From contig CAYJQX010000001.1 in assembly GCA_964372755.1 (NCBI GenBank), forward strand, positions 6,563 to 70,562: a stretch of 64,000 nt of DNA, written 5' to 3'. The translations under genes were made by a program, and so were the position numbers. The notes beneath the pieces are model-generated. The model saw nothing but the letters and a program-made list of their open reading frames with translations, did not search any database and had not been told where the DNA came from. This document shows positions 1,242 to 62,941 of this stretch, piece after piece (position 1 is the stretch's first letter; each line of letters opens with the position of its first letter). Source of the DNA: an uncultured Candidatus Saccharibacteria bacterium (GTDB taxonomy: Bacteria; Patescibacteriota; Minisyncoccia; UBA9983).

Positions 1242-1697
1242 TCCCCAGACCCCTTTCTGCGGGTGGGAAATCAACCGAGGCAAAACGAAAAATCCTTTTT
1301 CCCAGAAAAAAGATTTTCGCTTTGCCGAGTCCGTATTGAAGCCCCACGCACCCGGCGCGTGCCACATTACCAATTTTGGAAATAGGTTCTAACTTGGTAC
1401 AATAAATACACAATATAATCGAGTCAGGCGGGCGGGTAAGCCGTTAATGTAGGTTCGATTCCAACGTGGTGCAGAATACTTGAATTAGTCCGAACGCATT
1501 TTTCCGAAAAAATCCCCCCGAAAAAATTCGGAAAGGCGGCCGAGTCGCACCGCTCAAAACCGCAAAAGAACCCGGAGAAAAACATCGGCTCGAACCATGT
1601 TTTAGAAAATCGCCAATTCGTTTTTGCCCCGAAAATTCAATACCAACTGGCCGCCGAGCGAAGCGAGGCGGCTTCCTCTGGCTTGCTATTTCCGAAA

Positions 1698-1774: not shown

Positions 1775-1865
1775 GATTATTTTAATCTATACGAAAAACA
1801 ACCTGAGGACAAGATGTGTATAAGTAGACTGGTAATATGTATTCTACATACAGTATACTTTACTT

Positions 1866-2540
1866 GTGAAAATAATTGAAAAACAAAAGGCTAGGGAGTT
1901 ACGAAAACAAGGTAAGTCGATTAACCAGATTGTAAAGGAAGCTGGATTATCAAAGTCTAGTGTTAGCGATTGGGTTAGAGATATTGTTTTAACAAAAGCC
2001 CAGAGAAATAAAATTTCTCAAAGAGGTAGGAGTGTTGAATCTATAGAGAGAAGAAGATCAAGTCGTCTTGCAAATGAATATAAAAAGAAAAGAGCCATAA
2101 TTGATTTAGCGAAAGAGGATTTTGATAATATTACTGCAGAGCAGTTAAAGCTAATCGGAATTATTTTATATTTAGGCGAGGGGGCAAAAACTAATAAGGG
2201 AGTGGTTTCTGTGGCAAACAGTGATCCGATAGTTATTAAAATTGTGGCTAAATTCTTAAGAGAAACCTGTAAGGTTTCTGAGGATAAATTTCGTGGACAT
2301 ATACATACATTTGCTCATGCCGATGTAAACAAAACAGAAAGATTTTGGTCAAAAATTTCAGGAATTCCCAGAAATCAGTTTTATAAAACATATATTAAGT
2401 CTAGTTCTGCTAGCTTGCAAAAAAGACAAACACTTCCTTTTGGAACATTTAGTATTTCTACCAATGACACAAAACTTTTTCTGACTATAATGGGTTGGAT
2501 TGAAAGGATTAAGGAATTAACTGTTGGATTTATTAAATAG
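1866..2540 (+). CDS. HTH (resolvase/sigma-r4-like) + LAGLIDADG-like endonuclease family protein
   Basis: GTG start. N-terminal HTH KSINQIVKEAGLSKSSVSDWVRD. LAGLIDADG-like block LIGIILYLGEGAKTNK. Paralog of ORF 61792-62457, aligning over LYLGEG / LFLYWGEGG and the C-terminal part. Lies directly beside tRNA-Val. Confidence 0.5.
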   Translation: MKIIEKQKARELRKQGKSINQIVKEAGLSKSSVSDWVRDIVLTKAQRNKISQRGRSVESIERRRSSRLANEYKKKRAIIDLAKEDFDNITAEQLKLIGIILYLGEGAKTNKGVVSVANSDPIVIKIVAKFLRETCKVSEDKFRGHIHTFAHADVNKTERFWSKISGIPRNQFYKTYIKSSSASLQKRQTLPFGTFSISTNDTKLFLTIMGWIERIKELTVGFIK

Positions 2541-5281: not shown

Positions 5282-6304
5282 ATGGAAAATGTAGAAACAG
5301 CTATAGGGGGCGCGGGGGAGAAAGGCTTTCAAGATCATGGAGAGATAAAATTTCCTAAGGTTTTTTCTTTAATTGAATCTTCTTGGAATATTTACAAAGC
5401 AAATTGGCGGACCTTTTTCGGAGTCATCATTATTCCTCTTGCTGTCTCTGCTTTGTTTAATATTACGAGTCAGTTTATTGGAAATAGTAACAGTTTTTTT
5501 GGTTTTGCTTCATTCTCTGTTTTTTATTTACTTGCCCTATTTTTCCAAGTTTGGGGATATGTGGCTCTTTTGGTTGTGATAACAAACAACGAAGAGAAAA
5601 TCAGCTTCAGAGAAGCTTTCAAAAGAAGTTTACGGAAAATCCATTCTTATCTCTGGGTGACTATTTTATATGTCGCTCTTTTTTTGGGAGGACTGATTTT
5701 TTTTGTAGTTCCTGCCGTTCTTTTTGCCCTGTGGTTTATTTTTAGTTTCTTTATTCTTGTTGCAGAAAACGAGAAAGGAATGAATGCGTTGCTGAAGAGC
5801 CGTGAATACGTAAGAGGTCATTGGTGGCGGATTTTCGGAAAAATATTTTCTTTTGTTTTCTTGGCAATTGTCTCTTGTGTCATATTTCTTTTGCCTGCGG
5901 GTTTGGCTTTTAAGTTTAGTGATTTTTCTTTTCCTCTTATCGCTTTCTTGATTTTTTACTTTTCTATTTTTATGGCATTGGTAACTTTTATTCTTGTCCC
6001 GACGGGCCAAATTTATGCTTTCCTGATATACAAACATCTCAAGGAAATAAAAAAAGATTTTGAATTCAAACCGACAAAGAAAAGAAAAGCCCTTTTCTTT
6101 TCCGTGGCAATCATTGGCCCAGTTGTCGCTCTTGCTTTAACGGCATATTTTATACTCACTGTTTTGGGCTCAATTTTTAAAGCTTTTGGAACACCAAGAC
6201 AGTTTCCTTATGAAAACACCTCCGTTTCTTCGGGGAATGATTTGCAGATTAAAGATCTGGATGCTTTTTTGAATCTCCCAAAAACGATTCCTCCAAAAAA
6301 TTGA
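5282..6304 (+). CDS. polytopic membrane protein, function unknown
   Basis: Multiple hydrophobic helices (FFGVIIIPLAVSALF, LIFFVVPAVLFALWFIFSFFILV and others). No catalytic motif recognised. Confidence 0.45.
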   Translation: MENVETAIGGAGEKGFQDHGEIKFPKVFSLIESSWNIYKANWRTFFGVIIIPLAVSALFNITSQFIGNSNSFFGFASFSVFYLLALFFQVWGYVALLVVITNNEEKISFREAFKRSLRKIHSYLWVTILYVALFLGGLIFFVVPAVLFALWFIFSFFILVAENEKGMNALLKSREYVRGHWWRIFGKIFSFVFLAIVSCVIFLLPAGLAFKFSDFSFPLIAFLIFYFSIFMALVTFILVPTGQIYAFLIYKHLKEIKKDFEFKPTKKRKALFFSVAIIGPVVALALTAYFILTVLGSIFKAFGTPRQFPYENTSVSSGNDLQIKDLDAFLNLPKTIPPKN

Positions 6305-6329
6305 CACATAATCTACGTTGTGATACAAT
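6301..6329 (+). promoter_or_regulatory. sigma70-like promoter: TTGACA-N17-TGaTACAAT, 6 nt before the GTG start of the MscS gene
   Basis: TTGACA at 6301-6306 and an extended -10 TGATACAAT at 6321-6329. Start codon GTG at 6336 implies a leaderless or near-leaderless transcript. Confidence 0.5.
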
Positions 6330-6335
6330 ATAGGG

Positions 6336-7214
6336 GTGGAGTTATTCTCTTTTATAGACGGTTTTTGGAACAAAAATACTTTAGCTGGAGCTACGGCTAT
6401 TTTTGTTCTTGTTATTATCTATCGGCTACTTAGCAAAACTCTTCTTAAACATTTTGAAGAAAAAGGCGTAAAACAAGACGAAAGAAAAAACTTCTTTCTT
6501 TTCTGGCGCTATGGCTGGTATACCTTGGGTATTGTTTTGCTTTTAGTGAGTTTTTCTGGTTCTATCGCGGGCTTGGGTATTTCCGCCGCGTTTCTCGGTC
6601 TTATTATGGGTTGGTCGCTTCAAGCGCCGGTAACGGGCCTTGCGGGCTGGCTTATGATTATTTTGAAACGTCCGTTTAAAATCGGGGACAGAATAATTAT
6701 TGCCGGCATTACCGGAGACGTAACGGATATTAATCTAACCCACATAGTTTTGAATCAGGTGGGTGGCACTATTGGCGGAGAGGAGAGATCGGGCCGGGCG
6801 GTTTTGATTCCAAACGCCACTTTGTTCGGGCAAATAATTTACAACTACACTTCAGAAAGTCATTATTTGCTTGATGAAGTGGTAATTAATGTTACTTTTG
6901 AATCAGATATGGAAGAAGCCAATAAAATTCTTCTTTTGTCAGCCGAAGAGGTGACAGGGGATGTAATGAGGAAAACAAATGAAAAGCCATTTATCCGAAC
7001 GGAAATCATGGAATATGGCGTGCGTCTTCGCTTGCGCTACAAAGCTTTCGCCAAAGACAGGCAGAGAACAACCAGCGAAATATCGGTGCGGATTTTAAAA
7101 GGTTTTAGGGCGTCAGACAAGGTGGCTTTTGCTTATCCTCATACGGAGATAGTTTATAAACCCGACACCAATACGCGAATTGATGCGAATGGCACGAATA
7201 GTATTAAATCCTAA
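6336..7214 (+). CDS. mechanosensitive ion channel, MscS family
   Basis: Three N-terminal TM helices followed by the MscS beta-domain pattern LKRPFKIGDRIIIAGITGDVTDINLTHIVLNQVGG. Confidence 0.8.
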   Translation: MELFSFIDGFWNKNTLAGATAIFVLVIIYRLLSKTLLKHFEEKGVKQDERKNFFLFWRYGWYTLGIVLLLVSFSGSIAGLGISAAFLGLIMGWSLQAPVTGLAGWLMIILKRPFKIGDRIIIAGITGDVTDINLTHIVLNQVGGTIGGEERSGRAVLIPNATLFGQIIYNYTSESHYLLDEVVINVTFESDMEEANKILLLSAEEVTGDVMRKTNEKPFIRTEIMEYGVRLRLRYKAFAKDRQRTTSEISVRILKGFRASDKVAFAYPHTEIVYKPDTNTRIDANGTNSIKS

Positions 7215-7262
7215 CTTCCTTCATTCGCGATATTCGTGGGTATTATTCGTGTATTGGTGTCG
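7163..7262 (+). repeat. about 100-nt imperfect-palindromic MITE-like repeat, copy 1 (terminal inverted repeats CGACACCAATACGCGAAT / ATTCGTGTATTGGTGTCG)
   Basis: Related copies at 27469-27602, 34733-34773 and 39161-39263. This copy contains the last codons and the TAA stop of the MscS gene. Confidence 0.55.
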
Positions 7263-7284
7263 TTACTAAAATTTCATTTTAACT

Positions 7285-7842
7285 ATGACTAATCTTTACA
7301 CAGGCAAAGGAGATGGCGGAGATACGGGATTTTTTGATACCAAAAAAAGAGTATCCAAAGGCTCTTTGCGCGTGGAAGCTCTTGGCGCTCTCGACGAGAT
7401 AAATTCCCTTTTGGGAGTTTTGAAAGTCAAAGCCAGAAAAGATAATTTTAAAAATGTAAGCGAAGTTTTGTTTATCGTGCAAAACGACCTTTTCACCATT
7501 CAAGCGGAAACGGCGGCTATTTATGCGGGGGAAAACACACCCACAAAAACAATGCCAAAAGAAAGAGTGGAGTGGCTCGAGGACATCATCCAAAAAATCG
7601 GCGAGCAGATGAACCCGATAAAAAGTTTTACTGTCGCTGGAGGAAGCGAGCTTTCCGCTACTTTTGATTATGCCAGAGCCATTTCAAGAAGAGTGGAAAG
7701 AGTGGTCGTGCGTCTCAAAGACGAAGAAGGTTTTGGAGTAGAGTCGCTTCGATATTTGAACAGGCTTTCTTCTCTTCTTTTTGCTTTAGCTAGATTTGTA
7801 AACCATAAGCGTGGTATAAGAGAGGAAGCTCCGAAGTATTAG
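7285..7842 (+). CDS. PduO-type ATP:cob(I)alamin adenosyltransferase
   Basis: N-terminus MTNLYTGKGDGGDTGFFD...RVSKGSLRVEALGALDEINSLLG matches the PduO/MMAB family signature. Confidence 0.75.
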   Translation: MTNLYTGKGDGGDTGFFDTKKRVSKGSLRVEALGALDEINSLLGVLKVKARKDNFKNVSEVLFIVQNDLFTIQAETAAIYAGENTPTKTMPKERVEWLEDIIQKIGEQMNPIKSFTVAGGSELSATFDYARAISRRVERVVVRLKDEEGFGVESLRYLNRLSSLLFALARFVNHKRGIREEAPKY

Positions 7843-7918
7843 AGAGGAGGGATTGTATGTGGGATGTAGAGTATAGTGTGTAACTAGTCAGTATTTTAGC
7901 GTATCATTGTAAACTAAT

Positions 7919-7995
7919 GGTGGTCGTAGCTCAATTGGTAGAGCTCCGGTTTGTGGTACCGGCGGTTGCGGGTTCAAGCCCCGTCGATCACCCCA
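7919..7995 (+). tRNA. tRNA-His (anticodon GTG) with extra 5' G(-1), CCA encoded
   Basis: G GTGGTCG TA GCTC AATTGGTA GAGC T CCGGT TTGTGGT ACCGG CGGTT GCGGG TTCAAGC CCCGT CGATCAC C CCA. The G-1:C73 pair is characteristic of tRNA-His. Confidence 0.85.
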
Positions 7996-8101
7996 GACGT
8001 TTCAACTAAAAATGTTTGTTTTAGGTTCTAAATAAGATTTCCTTTTCGCTTCGGCATCATAGATTAAAGCCCTTCTTTTTTCTCTGATACAATAGGCTGT
8101 G

Positions 8102-9814
8102 ATGACTCAAAATCAAGCGCTTGAGATAATGAAAACAGGCGCTAATGTTTTTTTGACCGGCGAGCCCGGATCAGGGAAGACGCATACCATAAACGAGTAT
8201 GTGGCTTATTTGCTCTCTTGTGGCATTGAACCTTCTATTACGGCTTCAACCGGCATTGCCGCGACCCATATTGGCGGAATGACTATTCACTCGTGGAGTG
8301 GTATCGGGATTAGATCCAGATTGACTGAATACGATTTAGATAAAATTACTTCAACAGAATATATTGTAAAACGGGTGCGAAAAGCCAAGGTTCTCATCAT
8401 CGACGAAATTTCCATGCTCTCCGGAGAAACTCTTAATATGGTGGACGCCGTGTGCAAAGAAATAAAAAGAAATTCACTCTCTTTTGGCGGAATGCAAGTG
8501 ATTTTGGTGGGGGATTTTTTCCAACTTCCGCCTGTAAATAAAATTGAAAGAGAGGATGAGCCGGCGCAAATTTCTTTTCTTTTGGAAAATAAATCACATT
8601 TCGCTTACGAATCAGCCTCGTGGAAACAGGCTAATTTTATTGTTTGTTATTTAACCGAACAGCACAGGCAGGACGACCCTGATTTTCTCTCGCTCCTTTC
8701 TTCAATAAGGCGGAAGAATTTTAACCTTAGCCAGATCAAACATATGGAAAATCGCAAGATTTTAATACAAAACGCACCGCCACATGCGCCAAAACTTTTT
8801 TCGCACAATATAGACGTGGATGATGTTAATAAAAAAGCCCTGGAAGATATTTCGGGGAGCCCAAAAGTTTTCGAGATGTCCTCAAAAGGGAATGAAATTT
8901 TGATAAATGCCCTAAAAAAAGGATGCTTGTCTCCAGAGAAACTTTCTCTTAAAATCGGAGCCTCGGTAATGTTTACGAAAAATAGCCCAAGAGAGGGATT
9001 TGTAAACGGGACGCTTGGAGAAGTGACAGGCTTTGACAAAGAAAACGGCTATCCGCTTGTTAAGATTCGCAGTGGAAGGACAATTATGGTTCAACCTATG
9101 GATTGGACGATTGAGGAAGGAGGCACTATTCGCGCGCGAATCACGCAGATGCCTTTGAGGTTGGCTTGGGCGATCACGGTGCACAAGAGCCAAGGAATGA
9201 GCTTGGATCAAGCCGTGGTAGATTTATCACAAGTTTTTGAATTCGGGCAGGGATACGTGGCTCTCTCCAGAGTGCGGAGATTTTCCGGTCTTTATCTGTT
9301 GGGTTGGAACAAGCGGGCTTTTGAGGTTCATCCGGAAGTCTTAGAAAAAGATCAGTATTTTCAAAGTATTTCCCAAGAGATGGCAAGCGCTTTTTCTAAA
9401 ATGGATTCTGGCGAGATTGCAAAATTGCACAAAAATTTTATTGTTGCTTGCGGAGGAAAGAAAACTCAATTGCGAAAGAAAGCGCTAACTCGAATCGGGA
9501 CAAAGGATAAGAAAAAAACGACCTTTGAAACAACCTTGGAAATTTTTAAAAAAGGGAATAATGTTTCGGAAATTGCCAAAGAAAGAAATTTGGCTGAAAC
9601 GACCATCGTTTCCCACTTGGAAAAATTATATATGAAAGATTTGATTGATCAGAAAGAAATTTTGCGTATTATTCCCGCGCGGACAAGGGTGGATTTGGAA
9701 AAGATACAAAGAGCTTTTGGAGAAAGTGAGGACAATAAGCTCCTGCCCGTTTTTGAGAAGTTTAAAGGTAAGTATTCGTTCGAAGATTTGAGACTCGTGA
9801 GGTTGCTTGTTTGA
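8102..9814 (+). CDS. Pif1/RecD-family ATP-dependent DNA helicase with C-terminal HTH domain
   Basis: Walker A GEPGSGKTH, Walker B VLIIDEISM, the Pif1 signature DFFQLPPV, and a C-terminal HTH region (NVSEIAKERNLAETTIVSHLEKL). The extended -10 TGATACAAT at 8085-8093 lies 8 nt before the ATG. Confidence 0.8.
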   Translation: MTQNQALEIMKTGANVFLTGEPGSGKTHTINEYVAYLLSCGIEPSITASTGIAATHIGGMTIHSWSGIGIRSRLTEYDLDKITSTEYIVKRVRKAKVLIIDEISMLSGETLNMVDAVCKEIKRNSLSFGGMQVILVGDFFQLPPVNKIEREDEPAQISFLLENKSHFAYESASWKQANFIVCYLTEQHRQDDPDFLSLLSSIRRKNFNLSQIKHMENRKILIQNAPPHAPKLFSHNIDVDDVNKKALEDISGSPKVFEMSSKGNEILINALKKGCLSPEKLSLKIGASVMFTKNSPREGFVNGTLGEVTGFDKENGYPLVKIRSGRTIMVQPMDWTIEEGGTIRARITQMPLRLAWAITVHKSQGMSLDQAVVDLSQVFEFGQGYVALSRVRRFSGLYLLGWNKRAFEVHPEVLEKDQYFQSISQEMASAFSKMDSGEIAKLHKNFIVACGGKKTQLRKKALTRIGTKDKKKTTFETTLEIFKKGNNVSEIAKERNLAETTIVSHLEKLYMKDLIDQKEILRIIPARTRVDLEKIQRAFGESEDNKLLPVFEKFKGKYSFEDLRLVRLLV

Positions 9815-13082: not shown

Positions 13083-13120
13083 CCGCTTAAATTCTCTGGA
13101 TTTAAGTTATACTCAAAGAT

Positions 13121-13993
13121 ATGGAAATTCTTACAACAGAGCCTTCAAAAGACTACGAGTTGGTAGATTCTGGCGACGGGGAAAAACTGGAGAGATACGG
13201 AAATTTTGTGCTTGCCCGTCCTGATCCTCAAGCCATTTGGGAAAAAAGATTGTCAAAAAAAATCTGGGACTCTGCCCACGGGGTTTTTTTAAATGCGAGC
13301 AAAACCCGCTCTGGCTGGAAGCTACTTTCAAAATTGCCGGAGAGATGGCCTGTGCAAATGAATGATCTAAAGTTCTGGGTTCGACCAAGCCCTTTTAAAC
13401 ATACTGGGATTTTTCCTGAACAGTTGGGAAATTGGCAGTGGATTGAGGAGAAAATAAAAACTTCTGGTCGTGCGCCTGCGGTCCTCAATCTTTTTGGCTA
13501 CACGGGAGGGGCAACCCTAGCCAGTCTTCATAGCGGAGCCTCGGTTGTTCATGTTGACAGTTCTAAAACAGCGATTGGCTGGGCCAAAGACAACACGGAA
13601 CTTTCTGGACTTTCCGATAGGCCTGTTCGATGGATATTGGAAGACACCCTTTCTTTTGTAAGAAGAGAAGTTCGTCGCGGAAACAGATATGACGGAATTA
13701 TTCTAGATCCGCCTTCTTTCGGCAGGGGTGTTAAAGGAGAGGTTTGGAAAATAGAAAAAAACTTGCCGGAGCTAATGGAGCTCGTCTTAGAGCTTTTACC
13801 GGGAACTCCTCTTTTTATTTTGTTAAATGGTTACGCTTCCGGTTATTCATCTTTGGCTTATAAAAATAATTTATTACCCCTTATGAACCGTTATGGAGGA
13901 AAATTGTCTTTCGGCGAGCTTTCAATCAAAGAATCTGGAAATGGTTACAGACTTCTGCCGGCCGGTATTTTTGCCAGATGGAGCCTGCAGTAA
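13121..13993 (+). CDS. SAM-dependent RNA methyltransferase, RlmI/RlmK (Methyltrans_SAM) family
   Basis: VLNLFGYTGGATLASL (motif I) and GIILDPPSFGRG (motif IV, DPPxF) are typical of RlmI-type 23S rRNA methyltransferases. TATACT sits 7 nt before the ATG. Confidence 0.6.
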   Translation: MEILTTEPSKDYELVDSGDGEKLERYGNFVLARPDPQAIWEKRLSKKIWDSAHGVFLNASKTRSGWKLLSKLPERWPVQMNDLKFWVRPSPFKHTGIFPEQLGNWQWIEEKIKTSGRAPAVLNLFGYTGGATLASLHSGASVVHVDSSKTAIGWAKDNTELSGLSDRPVRWILEDTLSFVRREVRRGNRYDGIILDPPSFGRGVKGEVWKIEKNLPELMELVLELLPGTPLFILLNGYASGYSSLAYKNNLLPLMNRYGGKLSFGELSIKESGNGYRLLPAGIFARWSLQ

Positions 13994-14078
13994 TCGACTT
14001 GATCCTATCAATTGTTCCTCTTAAGATTTTTCCATCCAGTAATAGATAAAAATTATTATTTTCTGATACAATAAAAAA

Positions 14079-14462
14079 GTGGAGTACGGAATAAACAAAA
14101 ATATAACGCCTGCCGAGGAATTGGAAATTTTACGCAACAGAGTAAAGGAGCTTGAAGCCGTAAACCCAAACTCTGAAAAGAAAGAAATTATAAAAGAGGT
14201 GTTAGCAAAACACCTTGAAGAAACACCTTCCCCAATTTTGCCTCCACAAGAGGGCTCCCCAAAAATACAGGAATCTGTGAATGAGGATGGCGTGGAGATT
14301 ATTGTGGATGAACACGGCGTGGATATGCACAAGTTTCTTTCCTTAATTCACGAAAAAGGCGTCTGGTATGCGCTGGATCTGGCTCGCCGGACATCTCCCC
14401 ACTTGCTGGACGATTTTCACAGTGTGACAATTCAATATTTACAATCAAATCATGGGTTTTGA
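14079..14462 (+). CDS. hypothetical protein
   Basis: GTG start 6 nt after TGATACAAT (14064-14072). Acidic, helical composition. No family recognised. Confidence 0.4.
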   Translation: MEYGINKNITPAEELEILRNRVKELEAVNPNSEKKEIIKEVLAKHLEETPSPILPPQEGSPKIQESVNEDGVEIIVDEHGVDMHKFLSLIHEKGVWYALDLARRTSPHLLDDFHSVTIQYLQSNHGF

Positions 14463-17378: not shown

Positions 17379-20009
17379 ATGAGCTTAGAAAATCCCATCA
17401 ATCCACTGAATAACCCTGTCATCAGGAAAGGAGTTCTTGATGCTTTGGAGGGTAGGAATGATTTACCTACCTCTTTAGAGGTGGCGACCGCGAGAGCTTC
17501 AAGATTAAATGGACACGAAGAAGACGGGAACTCTTCTGGTAGTACGAAAAGTGAGAAGAAAGAGGAGGCTAATTTGGTGGACGCCGAGACGCAAATGGTT
17601 TTGGATGAAATGAAAGCCAAGGAAGAGCGTGAGAAAATGGAAAAACTTATGAGCGGAGGAGACAAAGAGCCGGAAATTCCGGGCGTGGTTGTTTTTGATT
17701 CCCCTAATGCTGAAATTCAAATGTCTTCTAATAAAAATCCAACTGATGCTGAGAGTATGCGCGGAGAAGCTGAAATTGTTCCGAAAATCCAAAAAGAAAC
17801 AGCCCCTGTTCCTCCTCAAGAATCTCCCCAAGAAGAAAAAATAGAAGCGAAAGAAGAGAAAAAAGAAATGCCTCAAATTTCCATAGAGGAAGCCAAAAAG
17901 AATCTTGATTCTTTTAGAAAAGCTTACGCTGTCTCAAGAGAAGCTAACGAAACAGCCATGAAAAAAGGAATGACTTCCGGAGAAATGCTAGCGATGGGAA
18001 AAGAAGCGGCCGATAAAGAAAGAGAATATTTTGAAGCTGTGGCAATGTATCGAGCCTCCTTGTTTAACGAGGCGCAAGGCAAGGGAGAGGCAAATGAAAA
18101 CATATTAAAAAATATTTTACTTGAGACAGTCACAAAGGAAGCCATTAACCTTCATGGAGAAAAAGTGCAGGCGGGATATGAGTCTCGCGGAGGCGATCCG
18201 AAATGGATAAAAGCCGGAAAAGTGGTGGCTAAAATAGGGGAGTGGTATACCAAACAGCCTTTAAAATATAAACTGGCCGCTGGTATTGGGCTAGGCCTTC
18301 TGGGAGGGTTGGCTGGAGGAGTAGTTGCTAGCGGTGTTTTTGCCGGACAGGCTGTTTTGCGGGGTGTAGGAGGAGCGGCTTCTGGAGTAGCGGTTGAAAG
18401 AGGTTTGGGAAAATGGCAGGAGAAAAGTTCCCAGAAAGAAGTATTAAAGGATTTTGGCGGCAACTTGATGGAGCATCTCGTTCAAATCGGAGGAGAAGCC
18501 GACAAAAAAATCTTAGCTTTGGAGAAAACGGAAAAATGGAATAGATTTAAACGTTTTGCCACAGCTGGTACCGTGGCGACTTTAATTGGTTCAGGTGCTT
18601 TTGCTGAAACTTTAAAATATGGTATCGGGAAAGTATCTTCTTTTTTTGGAGGAGGCAGTGTTTCAGCCCAGGAAACAGTTACTGGCAAAGTATTACCATC
18701 TTCCGAAAATATTCCAAGAAAATTTGACATGGGCGCGTTTGGAGAAGGAAGCAAAGCAGGGGAAATTGCAAAAGATTCCTTAAAATATGCTTCTCAAGAA
18801 GAAGCAAGGTTGAGAATGGGACTTCCTGAGGGAACGGTAATGCCGGAAATACCAAAATCGGTCGAAGATGTTTCGTTGGCTGGCTCGGCTGAAACAGCTA
18901 GCCTTTCAGCCGTAGCTGAGGGGGCAGTAAAAACAGCGGAAAGCATAGGAAGCGGCGAGTATGTCGTTAAAACAGGAGATAATCTTTGGCATATAGTCAG
19001 AGACAAAATAAATGAGGGAAGTTATTTCAAGGGCTTGACGGGGTCGTCCGAGGAATTAGCGGCCAAGAAAGCCAATGTGATCGCCAATCTTTTGAGGGAA
19101 GTGGAGAAAGATCCGAAAGCGTACGGAATCAATTCGCCCAAGGGCATAAATTTTGTTTATCCGGGAGACCATATCCAAATGCCAAAAGGTTTGTCTGATG
19201 CAAAAATAATGCAAGGTCTGATTGAACGAGCCAATAATCTTAGCTCTGATCAGATGAAAGTTATCACAGAGTCAATGAAAAAAATAGCCGGGGGAAAAGT
19301 GCTGGAAGATTTGGTTGATAATCAGACGGGGATAAAATTGCCATCAATGGGATTGCCCTATGAAGCCCACACAGCTTTAGAAGATAAATTAAATACGATG
19401 TCTTCTGTTACCCCAGAAGCTCCGGTAAGTGAAGTGCCGGAAAGACTTGGGTATACCGGCCTGCCATACGAGATGCATGCTGGGTTAGAGGATCAGATGA
19501 ATACGGGCGGAACAGAAAATCTTCCAAAGACAGAAATTCCAAGTAATCCACCGGTTAATGAAATGCAGGGCACTGTTTTGCCGGAAGAGCAGGGGCTTAC
19601 AGATGCCGAGAAGACTCTCTCGGCGGTCAATGAAGGAACAGCGAAGGCTTTGGCGAGAGAATCTTATAATATCAATGCGTTGGGGATTTTCGGACCCAAT
19701 TCCCCGATTTCTTATCGAGACATAAAAGAAATCCCTGTAAAGAAATTTCTTGACGCCTTGCCTCTTTCTGCCGAGGAAACAGAGAAAAATTTCAGTAATA
19801 GCACGCAATATATAAAAATACCCGGCCACAGTGGGGTATTAAATAATGTACAACTCGCTAAATATTTGAATCTTCGCGATTTTTTGAACAGTCCGGAAGT
19901 TTTTGGAAAAGGGTTTGATGCAAAACAGCTGGCTAACATAAAAATCGGAGATGCGATGAAAAATATTCCAAAGGAGTTGGTTGATAAATGGACTAGCTCT
20001 CATAAATAA
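17379..20009 (+). CDS. large (876 aa) membrane-associated protein with Gly-rich TM region, LysM-like motif and C-terminal tandem repeats
   Basis: AAGIGLGLLGGLAGGVVASGVFAGQAVLRGVGGAASGVAV is a Gly-zipper TM. YVVKTGDNLWHIVRDKI is LysM-like. Tandem repeat about 30 aa long, x2: GLPYEAHTALEDKLNTM / GLPYEMHAGLEDQMNTG. Confidence 0.45.
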   Translation: MSLENPINPLNNPVIRKGVLDALEGRNDLPTSLEVATARASRLNGHEEDGNSSGSTKSEKKEEANLVDAETQMVLDEMKAKEEREKMEKLMSGGDKEPEIPGVVVFDSPNAEIQMSSNKNPTDAESMRGEAEIVPKIQKETAPVPPQESPQEEKIEAKEEKKEMPQISIEEAKKNLDSFRKAYAVSREANETAMKKGMTSGEMLAMGKEAADKEREYFEAVAMYRASLFNEAQGKGEANENILKNILLETVTKEAINLHGEKVQAGYESRGGDPKWIKAGKVVAKIGEWYTKQPLKYKLAAGIGLGLLGGLAGGVVASGVFAGQAVLRGVGGAASGVAVERGLGKWQEKSSQKEVLKDFGGNLMEHLVQIGGEADKKILALEKTEKWNRFKRFATAGTVATLIGSGAFAETLKYGIGKVSSFFGGGSVSAQETVTGKVLPSSENIPRKFDMGAFGEGSKAGEIAKDSLKYASQEEARLRMGLPEGTVMPEIPKSVEDVSLAGSAETASLSAVAEGAVKTAESIGSGEYVVKTGDNLWHIVRDKINEGSYFKGLTGSSEELAAKKANVIANLLREVEKDPKAYGINSPKGINFVYPGDHIQMPKGLSDAKIMQGLIERANNLSSDQMKVITESMKKIAGGKVLEDLVDNQTGIKLPSMGLPYEAHTALEDKLNTMSSVTPEAPVSEVPERLGYTGLPYEMHAGLEDQMNTGGTENLPKTEIPSNPPVNEMQGTVLPEEQGLTDAEKTLSAVNEGTAKALARESYNINALGIFGPNSPISYRDIKEIPVKKFLDALPLSAEETEKNFSNSTQYIKIPGHSGVLNNVQLAKYLNLRDFLNSPEVFGKGFDAKQLANIKIGDAMKNIPKELVDKWTSSHK

Positions 20010-20828: not shown

Positions 20829-20889
20829 GTTTCTTTTGACGGAAAACAAGGCTGACGCGTGATACAATAATAAGCGGTATCAATATAAA

Positions 20890-21873
20890 ATGAGGATTAC
20901 CGCGTACCTTCCAACCAAAAGAAATGCTTATTGGATTTTGGCCGTTTTGATAATCTCTATCGGCCTTTTGGTGGTGTATCCGAGAAAGAAGATTCCAAAT
21001 TATTCTTATTCTAAAAATCTTTCTGGAATTCTTTCTCAACAAGCCGGAGGAGCAGACGATATAGACGGCGATGGCCTGAAAGATTGGGAAGAGGTTCTTT
21101 GGAAAACGGATCCGAATAGTCCAGATTCGGACAATGACGGCACTTCGGATGGAGAAGAGGTGGCTCTGGGCCGTGATCCGTTAAAACCCGGCCCAGACGA
21201 TATTTTCAACAATCCTCTCGCTTCAAATGTTTTTGTAAACAAATACGATACCGAGACGGAAGGTCTCTCCAGAAGGCTTTTTGCCGAATACTTAACGCTC
21301 AAGAAAGACGGGAGCTTGGATGACGAAACAAAAACGCAAATTATAGAAAGATTCATTAATGATTTGCCGGGACAAGACGGAGCGAAAGACCCTTTCACCT
21401 TGGCTGATTTGAAAATATCAAAAGATAATTCCGCCAGTGCTTACAGGAGGTATGGGAATATTTTAGGGCTTCTTGTGGCGGAAATGACCAAACCGGTAAA
21501 CGAGGAAGAATTGGAAATATTTTCTCGAGCCGTTGAAACAAATAATAATGAAATTTTGAAAAAATTGGATCCGGCCAAAGAAACTTTCAGAGGAATCGCT
21601 TCCACAATATCTCTGATGGAGGTTCCTTCGGGTTTGGCGGAAAATCATTTGACGTTGCTTAATTCTTTAGTTGGCGCCTATTATTCTCTCTCCGCCATGC
21701 AGGAAGTAAATAACGATCCCGCTCTCGCCTTGGGAGGCTTAAACGCTTATCAGTATGAGGTGGAGGTTATTACCGGTTCTTTTAAAGTGATCAGCCAAGC
21801 TGTCAAAAATAAAGGCGTGGTTTATTCTCCCAAAGAAGCGGGCGCTCTTATTTTTGAACTGGGCTCCGTTTAA
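20890..21873 (+). CDS. membrane-anchored hypothetical protein with Asp-rich calcium-binding-like repeats
   Basis: N-terminal TM. DIDGDGLKDWEE and DPNSPDSDNDGTSDGEE resemble thrombospondin type 3 or EF-hand-like D-x-D-x-D-G loops. Confidence 0.4.
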   Translation: MRITAYLPTKRNAYWILAVLIISIGLLVVYPRKKIPNYSYSKNLSGILSQQAGGADDIDGDGLKDWEEVLWKTDPNSPDSDNDGTSDGEEVALGRDPLKPGPDDIFNNPLASNVFVNKYDTETEGLSRRLFAEYLTLKKDGSLDDETKTQIIERFINDLPGQDGAKDPFTLADLKISKDNSASAYRRYGNILGLLVAEMTKPVNEEELEIFSRAVETNNNEILKKLDPAKETFRGIASTISLMEVPSGLAENHLTLLNSLVGAYYSLSAMQEVNNDPALALGGLNAYQYEVEVITGSFKVISQAVKNKGVVYSPKEAGALIFELGSV

Positions 21874-27608: not shown

Positions 27609-27624
27609 TGTTATAATTAAATCG
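27609..27624 (+). promoter_or_regulatory. extended -10 TGTTATAAT positioned 7 nt before the ATG (leaderless-type promoter)
   Basis: TGTTATAAT taaatcg ATG. The same layout recurs at many genes in this window. Confidence 0.45.
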
Positions 27625-28284
27625 ATGGCTATAAGTTCACAAGCAACACAAGTATTTGTTCCCATAAAAGAAATTCGTGAAGGAGTGGTTATTTTAAAAG
27701 ACGAATCGTTCAGAATGATTTTAATGTGCTCCACTCTGAATTTTGCTCTTAAATCTGAAGACGAGCAGAGCGCCATTGTCATGCAATATCAAAATTTTTT
27801 AAACTCCCTTGATTTTTCGGTGCAATTTTTTATCCAGTCGAGAAAATTAAACATTAATCCATACCTTACTACCCTTGAAGAGGCAAGAGTTCAACAGCCG
27901 AACGAGCTTTTGAAAATCCAAACAAAAGAATACATAGATTTTATTAGAAATTTTGTTACAACGACCAATATAGTGGAGAAAACTTTTTATGTGGTTGTGC
28001 CTTATGCTTCCTCCATTGCCATGCCCACAAAATCTTCGAACCCCATAAGCGGAATTCTTTCTATTTTTTCTCGGAACAAAGATAATCTGGGGCAGGCTGA
28101 GGCAATGCGTTTTGCCGAAGCAAGACTGCAAATTCAGCAAAGAGCAGACGTGGTTTCTCAAGGCTTGGCTGGAGCCGGCATTCGTTCCAAACAGCTTGGA
28201 ACGGAGGAGTTGATCGAGCTCTATTACAAACTTTTCAATCCGGGCGAGCTGGAAAAAGAATCTCTTAAAAGCATAAAATCATAA
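27625..28284 (+). CDS. virB4: VirB4/TrbE/CagE-family T4SS ATPase, N-terminal domain fragment
   Basis: VFVPIKEIREGVVILKDESFRMILMCSTLNFALKSEDEQSAIVMQYQNFLNSLDFSVQFFIQSRKLNINPYL matches the conserved VirB4 N-terminal domain. It ends with TAA one nt before the next ATG. Confidence 0.65.
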   Translation: MAISSQATQVFVPIKEIREGVVILKDESFRMILMCSTLNFALKSEDEQSAIVMQYQNFLNSLDFSVQFFIQSRKLNINPYLTTLEEARVQQPNELLKIQTKEYIDFIRNFVTTTNIVEKTFYVVVPYASSIAMPTKSSNPISGILSIFSRNKDNLGQAEAMRFAEARLQIQQRADVVSQGLAGAGIRSKQLGTEELIELYYKLFNPGELEKESLKSIKS

Positions 28285-28285: not shown

Positions 28286-30154
28286 ATGAGCATATTAGAT
28301 TCCTTAAAAAATAATTCTGTCACCCCAGCTCCTCAGACGCCGCAACCTTCTTTGCAAAATCCTTCTGTGGCAAGCGGAGAAATATTGCCGGTCATACCTC
28401 AAAATATTTATGAATATGGCGTTTTAAAATTGCAGGACGTTATTGCTCCGTCGGCCCTGGAAGTAGCTTCAAACCACATAAAAATCGGCGAGAAGGTAGC
28501 AAGGGTGATTTTTGCCATGTCTTATCCGAGATTTTTATCATCGGATTGGTTTTCTCCGATAGTTAATCTCGATAAAGTTTTTGATGTTTCTATTTTTGTT
28601 CATCCGATAGATACCGCTTCAGTTTTGCATCAAATGCAGAGAAGGGTGGCGGAAGTGCAATCTCAAATTAACGAGAGAGAATCCAAAGGATTGGTGCGCG
28701 ACCCGATGCTCGATACCGCTTATCAAGATCTGGAGAATTTACGCGATGACCTCCAACAGGCCACTGAAAAATTATTTAATCTAGGGCTTTATGTTACGGT
28801 TTATGCCGACTCACTGGACGAATTGGATAAAATAGAAACGGAAGTGCGCCAGATTATGGAATCCAAGCTTATTTATGTAAAACCGGCTCTTTTCCAACAG
28901 CTTGACGGGCTCTACACGGTCTTTCCTTTTGAGACGGATAAATTGGACATTCATAATCAGATGAATTCGTCTCCTCTCTCTTCTCTTTTTCCTTTTGTCT
29001 CTTTTGATCTTTCTTCCGACAGAGGAATTCTTTATGGAGTAAACAGACACAATAACGGCCTTGTTCTTTTTGATCGATATTCTCTGGAAAATTACAACTC
29101 GGTAGTTTTTGCCAAGTCTGGTTCGGGAAAATCTTACGCGACCAAATTGGAAATTTTGCGTACCCTTATGTTTGATACGGACGTGATCGTGATAGATCCG
29201 GAGAGGGAATATGAATATCTGGCGGAATCGGTAGACGGACAATATTTCAGCATCTCTCTTTCATCCAAACATCATATTAATCCTTTTGATCTGCCTCCTG
29301 TGGGCGAAGGAGAATCCCCCTCGGATGTTTTGAGAAGCAACATCATTTCCCTCGTGGGACTCTTTCGTTTGATGTTGGGCGGTCTTACGCCGGAGGAAGA
29401 CTCTGTTATTGACAGAGCGATTACCGAAACTTACGCTTCTCGCGATATCACGCCGGACACGGATTTTTCTACTCTTCCTCCACCGACTTTGTCGGACTTA
29501 GAAATTATTTTAGCCAGTATGGAGGGAGCGGAGTCTTTGGCCCAGCGCTTGGCCAAGTTTACTCGCGGGACTTGGGCCGGCTTTATCAACCAGCCGACCA
29601 ATGTTGACGTGAACCGAAAGTTTGTCGTTTTTTCCGTTCGCGACATGGAAGACGAGCTTCGTCCGATCGCGATGTATATAGTTATGCACTATATCTGGAA
29701 CATGGTCAGGAAAAATATCAGGAAAAGACTTTTGGTGGTGGATGAGGCTTGGTGGATGATGAAATCCGAAGACACGGCTTCTTTTCTTTTTGGCATCGCC
29801 AAACGAGGCAGAAAATATTTTTTGGGATTGCTCACTATCACTCAAAACGTGGAAGACTTTTTAAGTTCTCCTTACGGAGTGCCAATCATAACAAACTCTT
29901 CTATGCAGTTGCTGTTGAAGCAATCGCCTGCTTCCATAGAGATAGTGAAAAAGACTTTCAATCTTACAGAGGAGGAGAAATTTCTGCTTTTGGAATCAGA
30001 CGTGGGGGAGGGTATCTTTTTTGCGGGAGCCAAACATGTGGCCATAAAAGTCATTGCTTCATATACAGAAGATCAGATTATTACTTCCGATCCGGCCCAG
30101 CTTTTGGCCATAAAAAAAGCGCGAGAGGAAATTGGCAACCCCGTTACCGCTTGA
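28286..30154 (+). CDS. virB4: VirB4/TrbE/CagE-family T4SS ATPase, central and C-terminal ATPase domain
   Basis: Walker A VVFAKSGSGKSYAT and Walker B RLLVVDEAWWMM. The LTITQNVEDF motif is typical of VirB4. Confidence 0.75.
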   Translation: MSILDSLKNNSVTPAPQTPQPSLQNPSVASGEILPVIPQNIYEYGVLKLQDVIAPSALEVASNHIKIGEKVARVIFAMSYPRFLSSDWFSPIVNLDKVFDVSIFVHPIDTASVLHQMQRRVAEVQSQINERESKGLVRDPMLDTAYQDLENLRDDLQQATEKLFNLGLYVTVYADSLDELDKIETEVRQIMESKLIYVKPALFQQLDGLYTVFPFETDKLDIHNQMNSSPLSSLFPFVSFDLSSDRGILYGVNRHNNGLVLFDRYSLENYNSVVFAKSGSGKSYATKLEILRTLMFDTDVIVIDPEREYEYLAESVDGQYFSISLSSKHHINPFDLPPVGEGESPSDVLRSNIISLVGLFRLMLGGLTPEEDSVIDRAITETYASRDITPDTDFSTLPPPTLSDLEIILASMEGAESLAQRLAKFTRGTWAGFINQPTNVDVNRKFVVFSVRDMEDELRPIAMYIVMHYIWNMVRKNIRKRLLVVDEAWWMMKSEDTASFLFGIAKRGRKYFLGLLTITQNVEDFLSSPYGVPIITNSSMQLLLKQSPASIEIVKKTFNLTEEEKFLLLESDVGEGIFFAGAKHVAIKVIASYTEDQIITSDPAQLLAIKKAREEIGNPVTA

Positions 30155-30747: not shown

Positions 30748-31731
30748 ATGAAGAAAAATTTTTATCTGATACTAACATTGATAATTATCTTTACGGCGAC
30801 CTTTTTAGCGCCAAGATTTTTTGTTTTAGCCTTCGGAGATGATTTATCTCTTTCAGTTTTTCCGGAAAATCCCGAGGCCGGAGAGGAAATAAAAATCACC
30901 GCTTCAGGTTTTACTTTCAATGTAGATGATTCCGATTTTATTTGGGCGATAAACGGCAAGGTGGCGCTCAAGGGACGCGGAGAAAAGTCTTTGACTTTCA
31001 CAAATGGCGAAGCTGGCAAGGTAACGGAAGTCGTTGTAACGGTAATAGGAGAAAACGGGGAAAGTGTGGTAAGGAAAATCTCCTTTGCTCCGCAAGATCT
31101 GGATATTTTATGGGAAGCCGAAACCTACACTCCTCCTTTTTACAGGGGGAAAGCTCTGCCGAGCTCTGAAGCCTATATCACCTTTTTTGCCCTGCCACAT
31201 TTTTTTGTGAGCGGAAAAAAACTCGCGCCAACGGAACTTACTTACACTTGGAAAATCAACAACAAAATTCTAAGCGATTTTTCAGGGCTGGGGAAAACCA
31301 GTATCCGCATAAAAGGCCCGGAACTTTTTTCCAAGATGGAGGTGGAAGTTGCCGTTTCAAACAGGACCGGCTCCACATCGCAAAATAAAAAATTGACCAT
31401 AGAACCTATTTTTCCGGAACTTATTTTTTATCGCGAGGATGCTCTGGAGGGGACAAATTATGCCAAAGTTTTGGAAAATCCGGCTAAATTTGGCGAAGGA
31501 GAAGTTGGGGTAAGGGTCGAGCCGTATTTCTTTTCTCTTTCAGAGATTAATTTTCTTGATTACGCGTGGAGAGTGAACGGATTTTTATCAAAGCAATACG
31601 AGAAATCCAGAGTGGTTGTTTTCAGAAACAGAGAAGGCCAGGAGAAGGGGCGAGTAAGTGTCTCCCTTGAAGTGCAGAATCAAAAAAATGTGGGGCAAAT
31701 TAGTAAAGCCAGCGCCATGTTAGAATTTTAG
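30748..31731 (+). CDS. secreted hypothetical protein
   Basis: Signal peptide MKKNFYLILTLIIIFTATFLAPRFFVLA. Beta-rich. Confidence 0.4.
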   Translation: MKKNFYLILTLIIIFTATFLAPRFFVLAFGDDLSLSVFPENPEAGEEIKITASGFTFNVDDSDFIWAINGKVALKGRGEKSLTFTNGEAGKVTEVVVTVIGENGESVVRKISFAPQDLDILWEAETYTPPFYRGKALPSSEAYITFFALPHFFVSGKKLAPTELTYTWKINNKILSDFSGLGKTSIRIKGPELFSKMEVEVAVSNRTGSTSQNKKLTIEPIFPELIFYREDALEGTNYAKVLENPAKFGEGEVGVRVEPYFFSLSEINFLDYAWRVNGFLSKQYEKSRVVVFRNREGQEKGRVSVSLEVQNQKNVGQISKASAMLEF

Positions 31732-31734
31732 AAT

Positions 31735-32754
31735 ATGAAAAAGATAGCGTATATTTTTCTTTTTATTTTTATATTTTTTCCGACAGCTTTGTTGGCTGTG
31801 GATTTTATAGATCCGAATTCATCCAATCCTTGCGGGGGAGGCGGTATAACGGAAGATATCCAGAGAGGCAACGAATTCAGGCCGTGTCTTTTGGCTCCTT
31901 TGCCGACAGGGGCGGCCAATGAAGCAAGCCCCACCTTCACCGAGTATCTTACTTTTGTTTACAGGTTTTTGATTGCTGGGACGGCTTTGGTTGCCACCGG
32001 CCAGATAGTTTACGCGGGAATTTTGCGTATTTGGGGCGGAGTGAGCCAGTCAAGTATCACCAAATCAAGAGAGATCATAGAACGATCTCTCTGGGGTCTT
32101 GGCCTTGCTCTATCTTCTTACTTAATTCTCTACACCATCAATCCCAGTCTGGCGGAGATTAAACTGGAAATTCCGCCGATAGTATGGAAGGTGCAGAAGT
32201 TTGAGCCGGTTGAAAAGGGTCCCACCCAAGGTTCTGTTCTAAGTGGCGAAAATATTTCCTCTTCAGAGGAGGCAACAAGAAAATATATACTCAGTAAAGG
32301 TGTAACTATTGTGAGTTCTGGAAATAATTCTGGTGTTGTGGATGCCTGTCCTGATGGGGAAAAATTCTTTGATTATAAAGAAAGAACAGGCAGGAGTTGT
32401 ACCTCAGTAAGAGGTTTAGCTACAAGTACCATAGACAAGATTGGTAATTTAAAAAAGGATTGTAATTGCTCCGTTGCTATTAGTGGAGGGACTGAAGAAG
32501 GACATCAAACTCATGGCCCGAATCATCCAAGTACCTTAGATCTGGAAAAGGGTTTGAATTTTGATAATTTAGAAAAATATATTAAGGAAAATTCTAGTGC
32601 TATTTGCACCAAAAAAATCAAGAAAAAAATAAAACAAGAAGATGGAACAGAGAAGGAAGTAGAAGTGGAAATTAAATCATACGTAACAGATGGTATTAAG
32701 TTTACGGATGAAGATAACCACTGGCACGTGCTGGTCGGAGGTAGATGTTATTAA
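31735..32754 (+). CDS. secreted/membrane hypothetical protein with Cys-rich C-terminal domain
   Basis: Signal peptide plus two hydrophobic helices (FLIAGTALVATGQIVYAGIL, LGLALSSYLILYTI), reminiscent of VirB2/TrbC pilin topology. The C-terminal domain has 8 Cys. Confidence 0.4.
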   Translation: MKKIAYIFLFIFIFFPTALLAVDFIDPNSSNPCGGGGITEDIQRGNEFRPCLLAPLPTGAANEASPTFTEYLTFVYRFLIAGTALVATGQIVYAGILRIWGGVSQSSITKSREIIERSLWGLGLALSSYLILYTINPSLAEIKLEIPPIVWKVQKFEPVEKGPTQGSVLSGENISSSEEATRKYILSKGVTIVSSGNNSGVVDACPDGEKFFDYKERTGRSCTSVRGLATSTIDKIGNLKKDCNCSVAISGGTEEGHQTHGPNHPSTLDLEKGLNFDNLEKYIKENSSAICTKKIKKKIKQEDGTEKEVEVEIKSYVTDGIKFTDEDNHWHVLVGGRCY

Positions 32755-35931: not shown

Positions 35932-36069
35932 ATTTTTTATTTAAACTTTTTTGTTAAAAAAGCCCGTTTCTCGAAATTTGAGAACGGACCATAAGTGCCT
36001 TTTATTATAGTTTATCCACATAGGGTTTGTCAATGTGGGCTTATTCTTGTGTGCTATAATGAGTCTATT

Positions 36070-36480
36070 ATGGATATGGACATAAAAAGCTTCATTTCTG
36101 CCAGTATTCCTCCCGAATCCTCTCAATCTTCAGAAGGAGGGAAGTCTCCCTCCGGAGGGATTAAACTTCTAGTAATCGTAGCTATAGTTGTCCTTATTGT
36201 GGGCGTTGTCTGGTATTATCCCACTATTTCTAGAAAAAATATCACGAGAGAAGAAGAAGCGATAAATAAACAAGTGGAAGAATTGGATAATTTGCGCAAG
36301 CAAGCAGGTGTTAAAACTTACTCAGAAAAAGAGCTTCAGGCTCAATCAAAGGAGCTTGATGCTATGAGACAAACTATTATAGGTTCAGATGGAAAGCCTG
36401 TCAAAGTAGAATCCAAACCGCTCACAGAAGCCGAAATTAAACAGCAGATTGACGAATTAGACGCATTAAGGAAAAGATAA
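36070..36480 (+). CDS. small membrane-anchored coiled-coil protein
   Basis: Internal ATG preceded by TGCTATAAT and a 9-nt spacer. One TM (LLVIVAIVVLIVGVVWYY), then a coiled-coil tail. Confidence 0.4.
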   Translation: MDMDIKSFISASIPPESSQSSEGGKSPSGGIKLLVIVAIVVLIVGVVWYYPTISRKNITREEEAINKQVEELDNLRKQAGVKTYSEKELQAQSKELDAMRQTIIGSDGKPVKVESKPLTEAEIKQQIDELDALRKR

Positions 36481-42582: not shown

Positions 42583-42724
42583 AATGGTTTTTGATTTTGA
42601 AGCAAAAAAACAACAAGGCGCGTTTGTGCGATCCACGGCGCGTCTTTTTTCTTGCAAAACACTTCTTCCACAAAGAGGTGTTTTTTGCTGTCTAAAAATT
42701 CATTTTCCGTTTATAATTAAATCA

Positions 42725-47856: not shown

Positions 47857-47901
47857 GTTCAATTCCTGCTCTGCGCATTTCTTGCTACAATTAGGACCAA
47901 G

Positions 47902-49000: not shown

Positions 49001-49016
49001 TGATATAATATTTTCT
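49001..49016 (+). promoter_or_regulatory. extended -10 TGATATAAT, 7 nt before the GTG start of recJ (leaderless-type)
   Basis: TGATATAAT attttct GTG. Confidence 0.45.
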
Positions 49017-53480: not shown

Positions 53481-53490
53481 TGACAGGCAT

Positions 53491-53964: not shown

Positions 53965-54003
53965 TTTCTTTAGATTTTATACGTTATTTGATATAATAAA
54001 TGT

Positions 54004-54132
54004 GGGTCATCGGGATATAACTTCCTAACAAAAATCACAAGGGAGCCTCATATTGTTCCGAAAGCTTAGCTTTCGGAATTGCGGGCACCCACCTGGCATT
54101 TAGCTAGGAGTGATTATATCCCTTCATGGCCC
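54004..54132 (+). ncRNA. candidate structured 5' leader / small RNA (unclassified)
   Basis: TATAAT at 53994-53999, then GGGTCATCGGGATATAA (54004-54020), which is complementary to TTATATCCCTTCATGGCCC (54114-54132). A perfect internal hairpin CCGAAAGC tta GCTTTCGG sits inside. The region lies upstream of the membrane-protein gene at 54210. Confidence 0.25.
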
Positions 54133-54209
54133 CCAGAAAAAATCTTTCCGAAAACTTTAAAAATAAGTGTTCTGGAAAGATTTTTTCTTTTGTTTTACTC
54201 TAATAAGAT

Positions 54210-62920: not shown

Positions 62921-62941
62921 AAATCGTATAATGGATAAGAA

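Follow-up and report, generated by a model that had tools for sequence, protein, structure and literature searches.

Does a promoter that lies only a few nucleotides upstream of a start codon yield a messenger RNA that begins with that very codon? The question is raised by the MscS-like gene shown above, which lies in the window—the whole 64-kb stretch of contig CAYJQX010000001.1 (64,000 nucleotides, nt) that was analysed. The gene is preceded by a -35 element TTGACA at 6301–6306 and a -10 hexamer TACAAT at 6324–6329, with a TG at 6321–6322 inside the spacer, and its GTG start codon follows at N6, where N and a number denote the nucleotides between the hexamer and the start codon. Matching the consensus at 11 of 12 positions, this site is the top promoter-like (sigma-70-like) match within 5800–8300. 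The first-pass annotation of the window had listed it as one of 14 sites at which a -10 box, often of the extended form TGnTAnAAT, is placed 6–9 nt before an ATG or GTG without a Shine–Dalgarno (SD) sequence, and had taken this layout to imply widespread leaderless mRNAs. The reading favoured here, with a probability of about three in four, is that extended -10 promoters of the sigma-70 type produce mRNAs that are leaderless or carry a leader of at most 4 nt for a large minority of the genes.

The window has a GC content of ~41% and carries ~57 protein genes, nearly all of them on the + strand. It also holds five genes for tRNAs and, directly 3′ of smpB, one for tmRNA (58157–58519); a 16S rRNA gene is absent from it. 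TGA is read as stop, as at 6302–6304. Homologues of the RecJ protein encoded in the window are named Patescibacteria, Paceibacterota, Parcubacteria or Minisyncoccia, and the closest of them shares just 52% identity; as judged by these sequences, the source is therefore a divergent Paceibacteria/Parcubacteria-type member of Patescibacteria (candidate phyla radiation, CPR). Public collections contain the window's own RecJ (P0001) and MscS (P0121) proteins, whose start codons there are those chosen in the first pass. Reads of the runs ERR4904390 and ERR4904391 yield contigs of the same organism on assembly.

At all 14 listed sites, motif, spacing and start codon are found exactly as described, and the same layout recurs at four more positions, 31735, 47902, 59856 and 28286. 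For a count over the window, a hexamer was accepted as -10-like if it carried A as its second and T as its sixth base, agreed with TATAAT in 5 or 6 bases and stood at N5–10 before ATG or GTG; the null was obtained by shuffling each gene's own upstream region (5000 shuffles, 57 curated genes). Such a hexamer precedes 18 of the 57 genes compared with 5.06 expected, and 0 of 5000 shuffles reach 18, which places the motif above its background frequency before starts. The neighbouring 6-nt bins hold 4–7 each. When starts are assigned blindly by the longest open reading frame (ORF), the count is still 15 of 57 (0 of 5000 shuffles), and the histogram of -10-to-start spacings for these starts peaks at N6–7. 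The complete motif TGnTAnAAT has 15 occurrences on the + strand, where most genes lie, and 5 on the - strand; in a test that assumes no gene starts beforehand, 8 of these 20 occurrences are followed at N5–10 by an ATG or GTG that lies close to the 5′ end of an ORF with 80 or more codons and opens it (P about 3e-16 under a uniform-placement null). For TATAAT, such an ORF start follows 16% of the occurrences, compared with 0–9.6% for its 19 letter permutations. In about one third of the genes, a -10 box lies 6–10 nt before the start.

The character of the motif points to a sigma-70 promoter and not to a ribosome-binding site. A TG at -15/-14, one base before the hexamer, is present in 10 of the 18 sites. 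A consensus -35—a perfect TTGACA at 17 nt—is found only at the focal site. The box is commoner before genes that are preceded by a gap or are divergently oriented (14 of 37) than before tightly coupled ones (4 of 20). Two promoter elements coincide with upstream stop codons: the focal TTGACA includes the TGA of the gene at 5282–6304, and the -10 TATAAT of ndk (53476–53481) includes the TAA of the gene at 52617–53480. These overlaps illustrate how compactly promoters are embedded in a small genome.

A yardstick for the distance between box and RNA 5′ end is offered by a non-coding RNA of the window, which is preceded by an extended -10 box of its own (Table). This 127-nt RNA folds well (z = -5.6) and is conserved in three relatives (L002 10114–10237, L005 15582–15707 and L006 6978–7113); ndk precedes it in the window, L005 and L006, and an adenylate-kinase-like gene does so in the remaining relative. 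In the four genomes, the RNA begins exactly at TATAAT plus 7 nt, that is, 8 nt after the box. Since 4 of the 7 pairs of its terminal stem feature compensatory changes, the start position of the RNA is fixed. The distance estimated in this way equals the canonical -10-to-5′-end value and matches the N6–7 peak at coding genes. A hairpin with a T-run is visible by eye ~20–60 nt 3′ of the RNA, and the unit of 53989–54190 (+) has the appearance of an independent transcription unit with an extended -10 promoter. The Rfam model RF00013 (6S/SsrS) scores 20.4 bits on 54005–54131 against a gathering score of 46.4 and hence remains below threshold. The conserved 17-mer TGCGGRCACCCACCTGG falls inside Rfam-called 6S RNAs of three Firmicutes; it also matches many Saccharibacteria and Patescibacteria contigs, 12 of which were scanned and gave no 6S call. 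The RNA is probably a shortened (~125 nt compared with ~185 nt) 6S/SsrS RNA of Patescibacteria. The 6S RNA of Escherichia coli prefers promoters with an extended -10 and a weak -35, and this is the dominant promoter type in the window.

The same layout recurs in relatives. Six other Paceibacteria contributed the loci surrounding their RecJ homologues, which are in part syntenic with the window and were used with their public gene calls; the three GC contents computed are 37–45%. Here, 32 of 102 called genes have a box at N5–10 compared with 9.9 expected (0 of 5000 shuffles), and the spacing peaks at N6, which accounts for 15 of the 32 genes. At recJ, the -10 box stands at N7 in the window, L002 and L005, at N6 in L003 and L006 and at N8 in L007; only in L004 is the gene translationally coupled. 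The RecJ N-termini of the window and the six relatives align at residue 1 (M-L/K-K-x-W), and the GTG at 49017 therefore corresponds to the ATG of the relatives. For smpB, the window and L002 (TGATATAGT-N6-ATG) both have the box at N6, and for ndk the relatives feature TATAAT-N8-ATG (L005) and TAGAAT-N6-ATG (L007). At orthologous genes, the spacing is conserved in genomes with protein identities of just 43–79%. The MscS gene of the relative L008 (79% identity) carries TTGACA, a 17-nt spacer with TG, TAAAAT, N6 and ATG, and its N-terminus is in the same register; compared with the window, the box-to-start geometry is retained despite changes in the spacer sequence and in the start codon. Saccharibacteria and Firmicutes loci, which came from an unrelated DNA-pattern search, widen the comparison: TGnTAnAAT stands directly before an ORF start at 8 of 20 occurrences in the window, 6 of 35 in the Paceibacteria relatives and 6 of 29 in the Saccharibacteria loci, but at 0 of 31 in the Firmicutes control loci (CPR loci without the window against Firmicutes: Fisher p = 0.008).

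Ribosome-binding sites of the SD type are scarce. SD 4-mer cores at -4 to -18 are found in 6 of 57 genes compared with 3.1 in shuffles (p = 0.09) and are thus not enriched. Clear SDs occur only at 41389 (AGGAGG), at 11922 on the minus strand (AAGGAGGTG) and at 9902 (GAGGGGG); the first pass had cited 9902 and 41389 as examples of the few genes with an SD, and its statement stands with 11922 as one more case. Its other statement, that the -10-box sites lack an SD, also agrees with the sequence: among the 18 sites an SD-like 4-mer at -4 to -18 is present only at the additional site 47902, as an AGGA within the N10 spacer. The 16 tightly coupled genes have upstream regions that are A/T-rich with few G. 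A dual model, in which the remaining genes use SD, does not describe the window, since SD cores are near background in the 57 genes.

Several of the start codons are supported by N-terminal homology. Full-length profile alignments connect residue 4 of SmpB with profile position 2, residue 1 of phosphoglycerate kinase (PGK) with position 1 and residue 4 of Ndk with position 3; the corresponding values are 14 and 3 for RecJ, 18 and 4 for FtsH and 5 and 1 for a PduO-type adenosyltransferase. Homology at the N-terminus thus supports the starts of RecJ, MscS, SmpB, Ndk, PGK and FtsH as deduced from sequence, and the proteins at 14079, 36070 and 62942 gave no family match with which their starts could be compared. 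All four GTG starts of the window (1866, 6336, 14079 and 49017) have a -10 box at N6–7, so GTG opens 4 of 18 box genes and none of the 39 others (Fisher p = 0.008). The orthologues of RecJ and MscS use ATG at the position of the window's GTG. GTG may be tolerated specifically at 5′-terminal starts; in mycobacteria, both ATG and GTG serve as 5′-terminal starts. The gene infC, coding for initiation factor IF3, at 57119–57628 on the minus strand seems to begin at TTG; TGTTACAAT stands 23 nt before it, and an SD is absent. Unusual start codons are frequent among IF3 genes, where they serve autoregulation.

Taken together, these findings suggest the following mechanism. The housekeeping RNA polymerase would use promoters dominated by the -10 element, often TGnTAnAAT and usually without a good -35, and transcription would begin ~7–8 nt 3′ of the hexamer. 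A box 6–10 nt before ATG or GTG in about one third of the genes—and in ~40% of the gap-preceded ones—would then place the transcription start site (TSS) at the start codon or just before it. At N6–7, the canonical TSS position is occupied by the first base of the start codon, A or G, and the predicted transcript opens with that codon. At N8–10, a purine 7–8 nt after the box would give a leader of 1–4 nt, and these sites probably carry such leaders. Leaderless mRNAs would be unable to pair with the 16S rRNA, and we infer for them the leaderless route of translation, in which the ribosome and the initiator tRNA bind the 5′-terminal AUG or GUG directly. Operon-internal genes have no SD and an A/T-rich upstream region, and often begin 0–10 nt past the previous stop or overlap it; for these genes, initiation independent of SD or coupling of termination and reinitiation is probable.

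Several observations weigh against this account or restrict it. Leader length is read off the -10-to-start spacing only, and the yardstick given by the 6S-like RNA is indirect because the ends of mature 6S RNA can be processed. The best -10 box of about ten gap-preceded genes lies 12–33 nt upstream, which makes leaderless starts common but not universal; several other first genes are predicted to have short (12–30 nt) SD-less leaders rather than none. Of the first-pass claim of widespread leaderless mRNAs, the part that survives is that the sequence tests favour a TSS at the start codon or 1–4 nt before it, and the part that needs trimming concerns these first genes with leaders of 12–30 nt. 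The layout is also not fixed for every orthologue, as shown by PGK in L002 with an extended -10 box 44 nt upstream. Four sites lie 1–17 nt past an upstream gene; among them, 28286 and 31735—at 1–3 nt—may be chance matches or internal promoters, and the box at 31735 in particular would be either the one or the other. Finally, three clear SD sites exist, and the ribosome therefore probably still has an anti-SD.

Base composition alone could be thought to produce the layout: the genome has ~41% GC and A/T-rich gene-upstream regions, background -10-like hexamers amount to ~1 per position per 57 genes, and start choice may have been biased toward chance TATAAT-like words in AT-rich intergenic DNA, three first-pass starts being different from the longest-ORF starts. 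However, the local shuffles never reach the observed count, with the blind longest-ORF rule included; the 102 publicly called genes of the six relatives agree; letter permutations of TATAAT are without effect, the Firmicutes loci yield none in 31, and the spacing is conserved at orthologues. Chance was thus tested and is rejected, with next to no probability left to it. A TAnAAT-like motif might instead act in translation, as an AT-rich non-SD signal on leadered mRNAs without any promoter, comparable to GeneMarkS-2 group B and Bacteroidota. The A/T-rich, SD-free upstream regions of nearly all genes would fit such a signal, and so would the few tightly coupled genes that have the motif (28286, 31735 and, at N2, 18850 in L005). 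A group-B motif is expected at first and internal genes alike, yet the box is about twice as frequent before gap-preceded genes as before coupled ones; moreover, the TG extension is specific to promoters, the focal site adds a perfect -35 at 17 nt, and the identical box is found before a non-coding RNA in four genomes and before leadered genes at 20–30 nt. T6 and A2 of the hexamer, which are contacts of RNA polymerase, are invariant. A purely translational role is accordingly held to be improbable, if less so than chance.

The only rival with real weight accepts the promoters and questions their share in expression: the boxes near starts would act as internal promoters that are minor or specific to certain conditions, and most of the mRNA would be leadered or polycistronic, arising from promoters further upstream. 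Genes are tightly packed and nearly all on one strand, and the boxes at 6336, 13121, 47902, 49017 and 53491 lie 10–45 nt past the upstream gene, in gaps that were not searched for terminators, so that read-through into these genes is plausible. Transcription from upstream is harder to invoke at 1866, 8102, 36070, 57718 and 62942, which follow tRNA genes or are divergent and have no same-strand protein gene immediately upstream. In addition, the exact spacing of N6–8 is conserved across genomes, which therefore argues for selection on the leaderless form itself and not merely on a promoter nearby. Read-through as the main source of mRNA is judged unlikely, although clearly less so than a translational signal, and leaderless or near-leaderless transcription from the adjacent boxes remains the preferred reading.

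Table. Promoter-like boxes adjacent to start codons in the window, with related features; "additional" marks sites absent from the first-pass list.
Feature	Coordinates	Strand	Elements and start codon	Remark
Helix-turn-helix protein	1854–1868	+	TATACT, N6, GTG 1866	weak matches to transposase N-terminal regions
Focal promoter and MscS-like gene start	6301–6338	+	TTGACA, 17-nt spacer, TACAAT, N6, GTG 6336	
MscS-like gene	6336–7214	+		public gene call P0121 has the same start
RecD2-like helicase gene	8085–8104	+	TGATACAAT, N8, ATG 8102 (or N5, GTG 8099)	3′ of tRNA-His
rRNA methyltransferase-like gene	13108–13123	+	TATACT, N7, ATG 13121	
127-aa protein	14064–14081	+	TGATACAAT, N6, GTG 14079	no family match
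Contrast case	20860–20892	+	TGATACAAT, 21-nt spacer, ATG 20890	no SD
VirB4-like ATPase, N-terminal piece	27609–27627	+	TGTTATAAT, N7, ATG 27625	split gene
VirB4-like ORF junction		+	TAAAAT, N6, ATG 28286	additional
Gene at 31735	31718–31737	+	TGTTAGAAT, N8, ATG 31735	additional; box within 3′ end of upstream gene
Gene at 36070	36052–36072	+	TGCTATAAT, N9, ATG 36070	138-nt divergent intergenic region
Histidine kinase	42712–42727	+	TATAAT, N7, ATG 42725	
PGK	47883–47904	+	TGCTACAAT, N10, ATG 47902	additional; predicted leader 1–3 nt
RecJ	49001–49019	+	TGATATAAT, N7, GTG 49017	
Nucleoside-diphosphate kinase (ndk)	53476–53493	+	TATAAT, N9, ATG 53491	box overlaps upstream stop
Promoter and 6S-like RNA	53989–54131	+	TGATATAAT 53989–53997, 7 nt, RNA	127-nt structured RNA 54005–54131
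smpB	57703–57720	+	TGGTATAAT, N6, ATG 57718	followed by tmRNA
88-aa ORF 58700–58966	58688–58702	+	TATAAT, N6, ATG 58700	
34-codon ORF	59027–59044	+	TGATAATAT (4/6 against TATAAT), N6, ATG 59042	weakest site of the set
FtsH	59840–59858	+	TATACT, N10, ATG 59856	additional; predicted leader ~4 nt
274-aa protein	62927–62944	+	TATAAT, N9, ATG 62942	no family match; 3′ of tRNA-Gly

The individual sites differ in how well their starts are defined. The ORFs at 8102, 36070 and 42725 run further upstream than the starts given in the Table, which is a caveat for these three. For 36070, a longer ORF from GTG 35995 was considered and discarded, as its extra residues do not look protein-like by eye and lie within the divergent intergenic region; a longer ORF from 42566 for 42725 was discarded likewise, with an extra stretch that is not protein-like by eye and falls in the promoter region. 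After ATG 42725, a hydrophobic stretch resembles a transmembrane segment by eye. The gene at 20890 serves as a contrast, and its transcript is predicted to have a short leader and not to be leaderless.

Some neighbouring features deserve description in their own right. The VirB4-like conjugal transfer ATPase is divided into two ORFs, 27625–28284 and 28286–30154 (+), with a stop codon and a single base between them. Profile positions ~6–240 are covered by the N-terminal piece and ~185–734 by the C-terminal one; possible explanations are gene splitting, decay to a pseudogene or an error of sequencing. Just after the tmRNA gene, 58520–59850 (+) holds a cluster of small or broken ORFs. The 88-aa ORF in it is reminiscent, by eye, of the GIY-YIG type, with no NCBIfam match, and the fragments 59042–59146 and 59369–59671 may, by eye, belong to one disrupted NYN-type gene. 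The cluster may be the remnant of an element inserted beside the tmRNA gene. An orphan extended -10 box, TGGTACAAT, occurs at 1395–1403 (+) with no ORF start after it. A stretch resembling a tRNA T-arm, GGTTCGATTCC, follows at ~1440–1470; the region up to 1700 gave no ARAGORN tRNA call and no Rfam family at gathering score. More orphan boxes lie at 4064 and 63846. ARAGORN also calls a tRNA-Ile with anticodon TAT at 62476–62547 (+), an uncommon bacterial way to read AUA, for which a modified CAT anticodon is usual. The 876-aa protein at 17379–20009 had no relative in the scan of genome contigs.

The practical consequence concerns gene calling. Start prediction in CPR genomes depends on the assumed initiation model; should leaderless genes make up one third of the total and SD go unused, SD-based callers will misplace starts in metagenome bins of this lineage. 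If true, the proposed mechanism would also explain start-codon recognition in a lineage whose ribosomes are often without the anti-SD motif and bS21 (PMC9297842). For the few Patescibacteria that can be cultivated and transformed, a design rule for expression constructs would be TGnTAnAAT, 6–7 nt and ATG. Whether leaderless transcripts are the default for first cistrons across Patescibacteria—Paceibacteria and Saccharibacteria, low-GC genomes with the standard code—in combination with SD-independent internal initiation is a wider proposal for which the odds appear about even. If so, Patescibacteria, a very large and uncultured radiation, would join Actinobacteria and Deinococcus-Thermus as a third major bacterial group with leaderless translation, and a mechanism would be at hand for the loss of anti-SD and bS21 in many Parcubacteria.

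How does the layout compare with known systems? A Pribnow box ~6–10 nt before the starts of first genes is the signature of bacterial leaderless transcription in GeneMarkS-2, where it defines group C; this group is frequent in Actinobacteria, for example Mycobacterium tuberculosis, and in Deinococcus-Thermus, with an estimated 25–50% of transcription units (PMC6028130). The window resembles group C in having the -10 box 6–10 nt before first-gene starts and no SD at those genes. It differs in lineage and in two further respects: SD is used by the remaining genes of group C, whereas SD cores are at background here, and group C genomes with genetic code 11 are almost all high-GC, the low-GC members being code-4 Mycoplasma (bioRxiv 10.1101/2022.07.25.500264), whereas the window has ~41% GC. 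In 33 code-4 genomes, 30–60% of the genes were predicted to be leaderless (bioRxiv 10.1101/2022.07.25.500264). With these Mollicutes, the window shares a low-GC reduced genome, a strong -10 with a weak or absent -35, and predicted leaderless along with short-leader transcripts; unlike them, it reads TGA as a stop and belongs to another phylum. Extended -10 promoters of E. coli and Gram-positive bacteria likewise have the TG one base before the hexamer and a dispensable -35, but normally precede leaders of 20–200 nt with an SD.

For the lineage itself, an anti-SD motif was detected in just 48% of the 16S genes of Parcubacteria, and bS21 is often absent (PMC9297842). That report agrees with the window in that SD pairing is not the main selector of starts; it covered rRNA and ribosomal proteins, not mRNA 5′ regions, and proposed no leaderless transcripts. 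Patescibacteria are not among the lineages named for group C in the literature found, and a paper linking leaderless transcripts to CPR was not found, although the supplementary lists of GeneMarkS-2 may already place CPR genomes in group C. The layout of the window thus carries known biology into a further lineage, without a new mechanism: it is the architecture of group C, known from Actinobacteria, Deinococcus and Mycoplasma, in a lineage where it appears to be undocumented.

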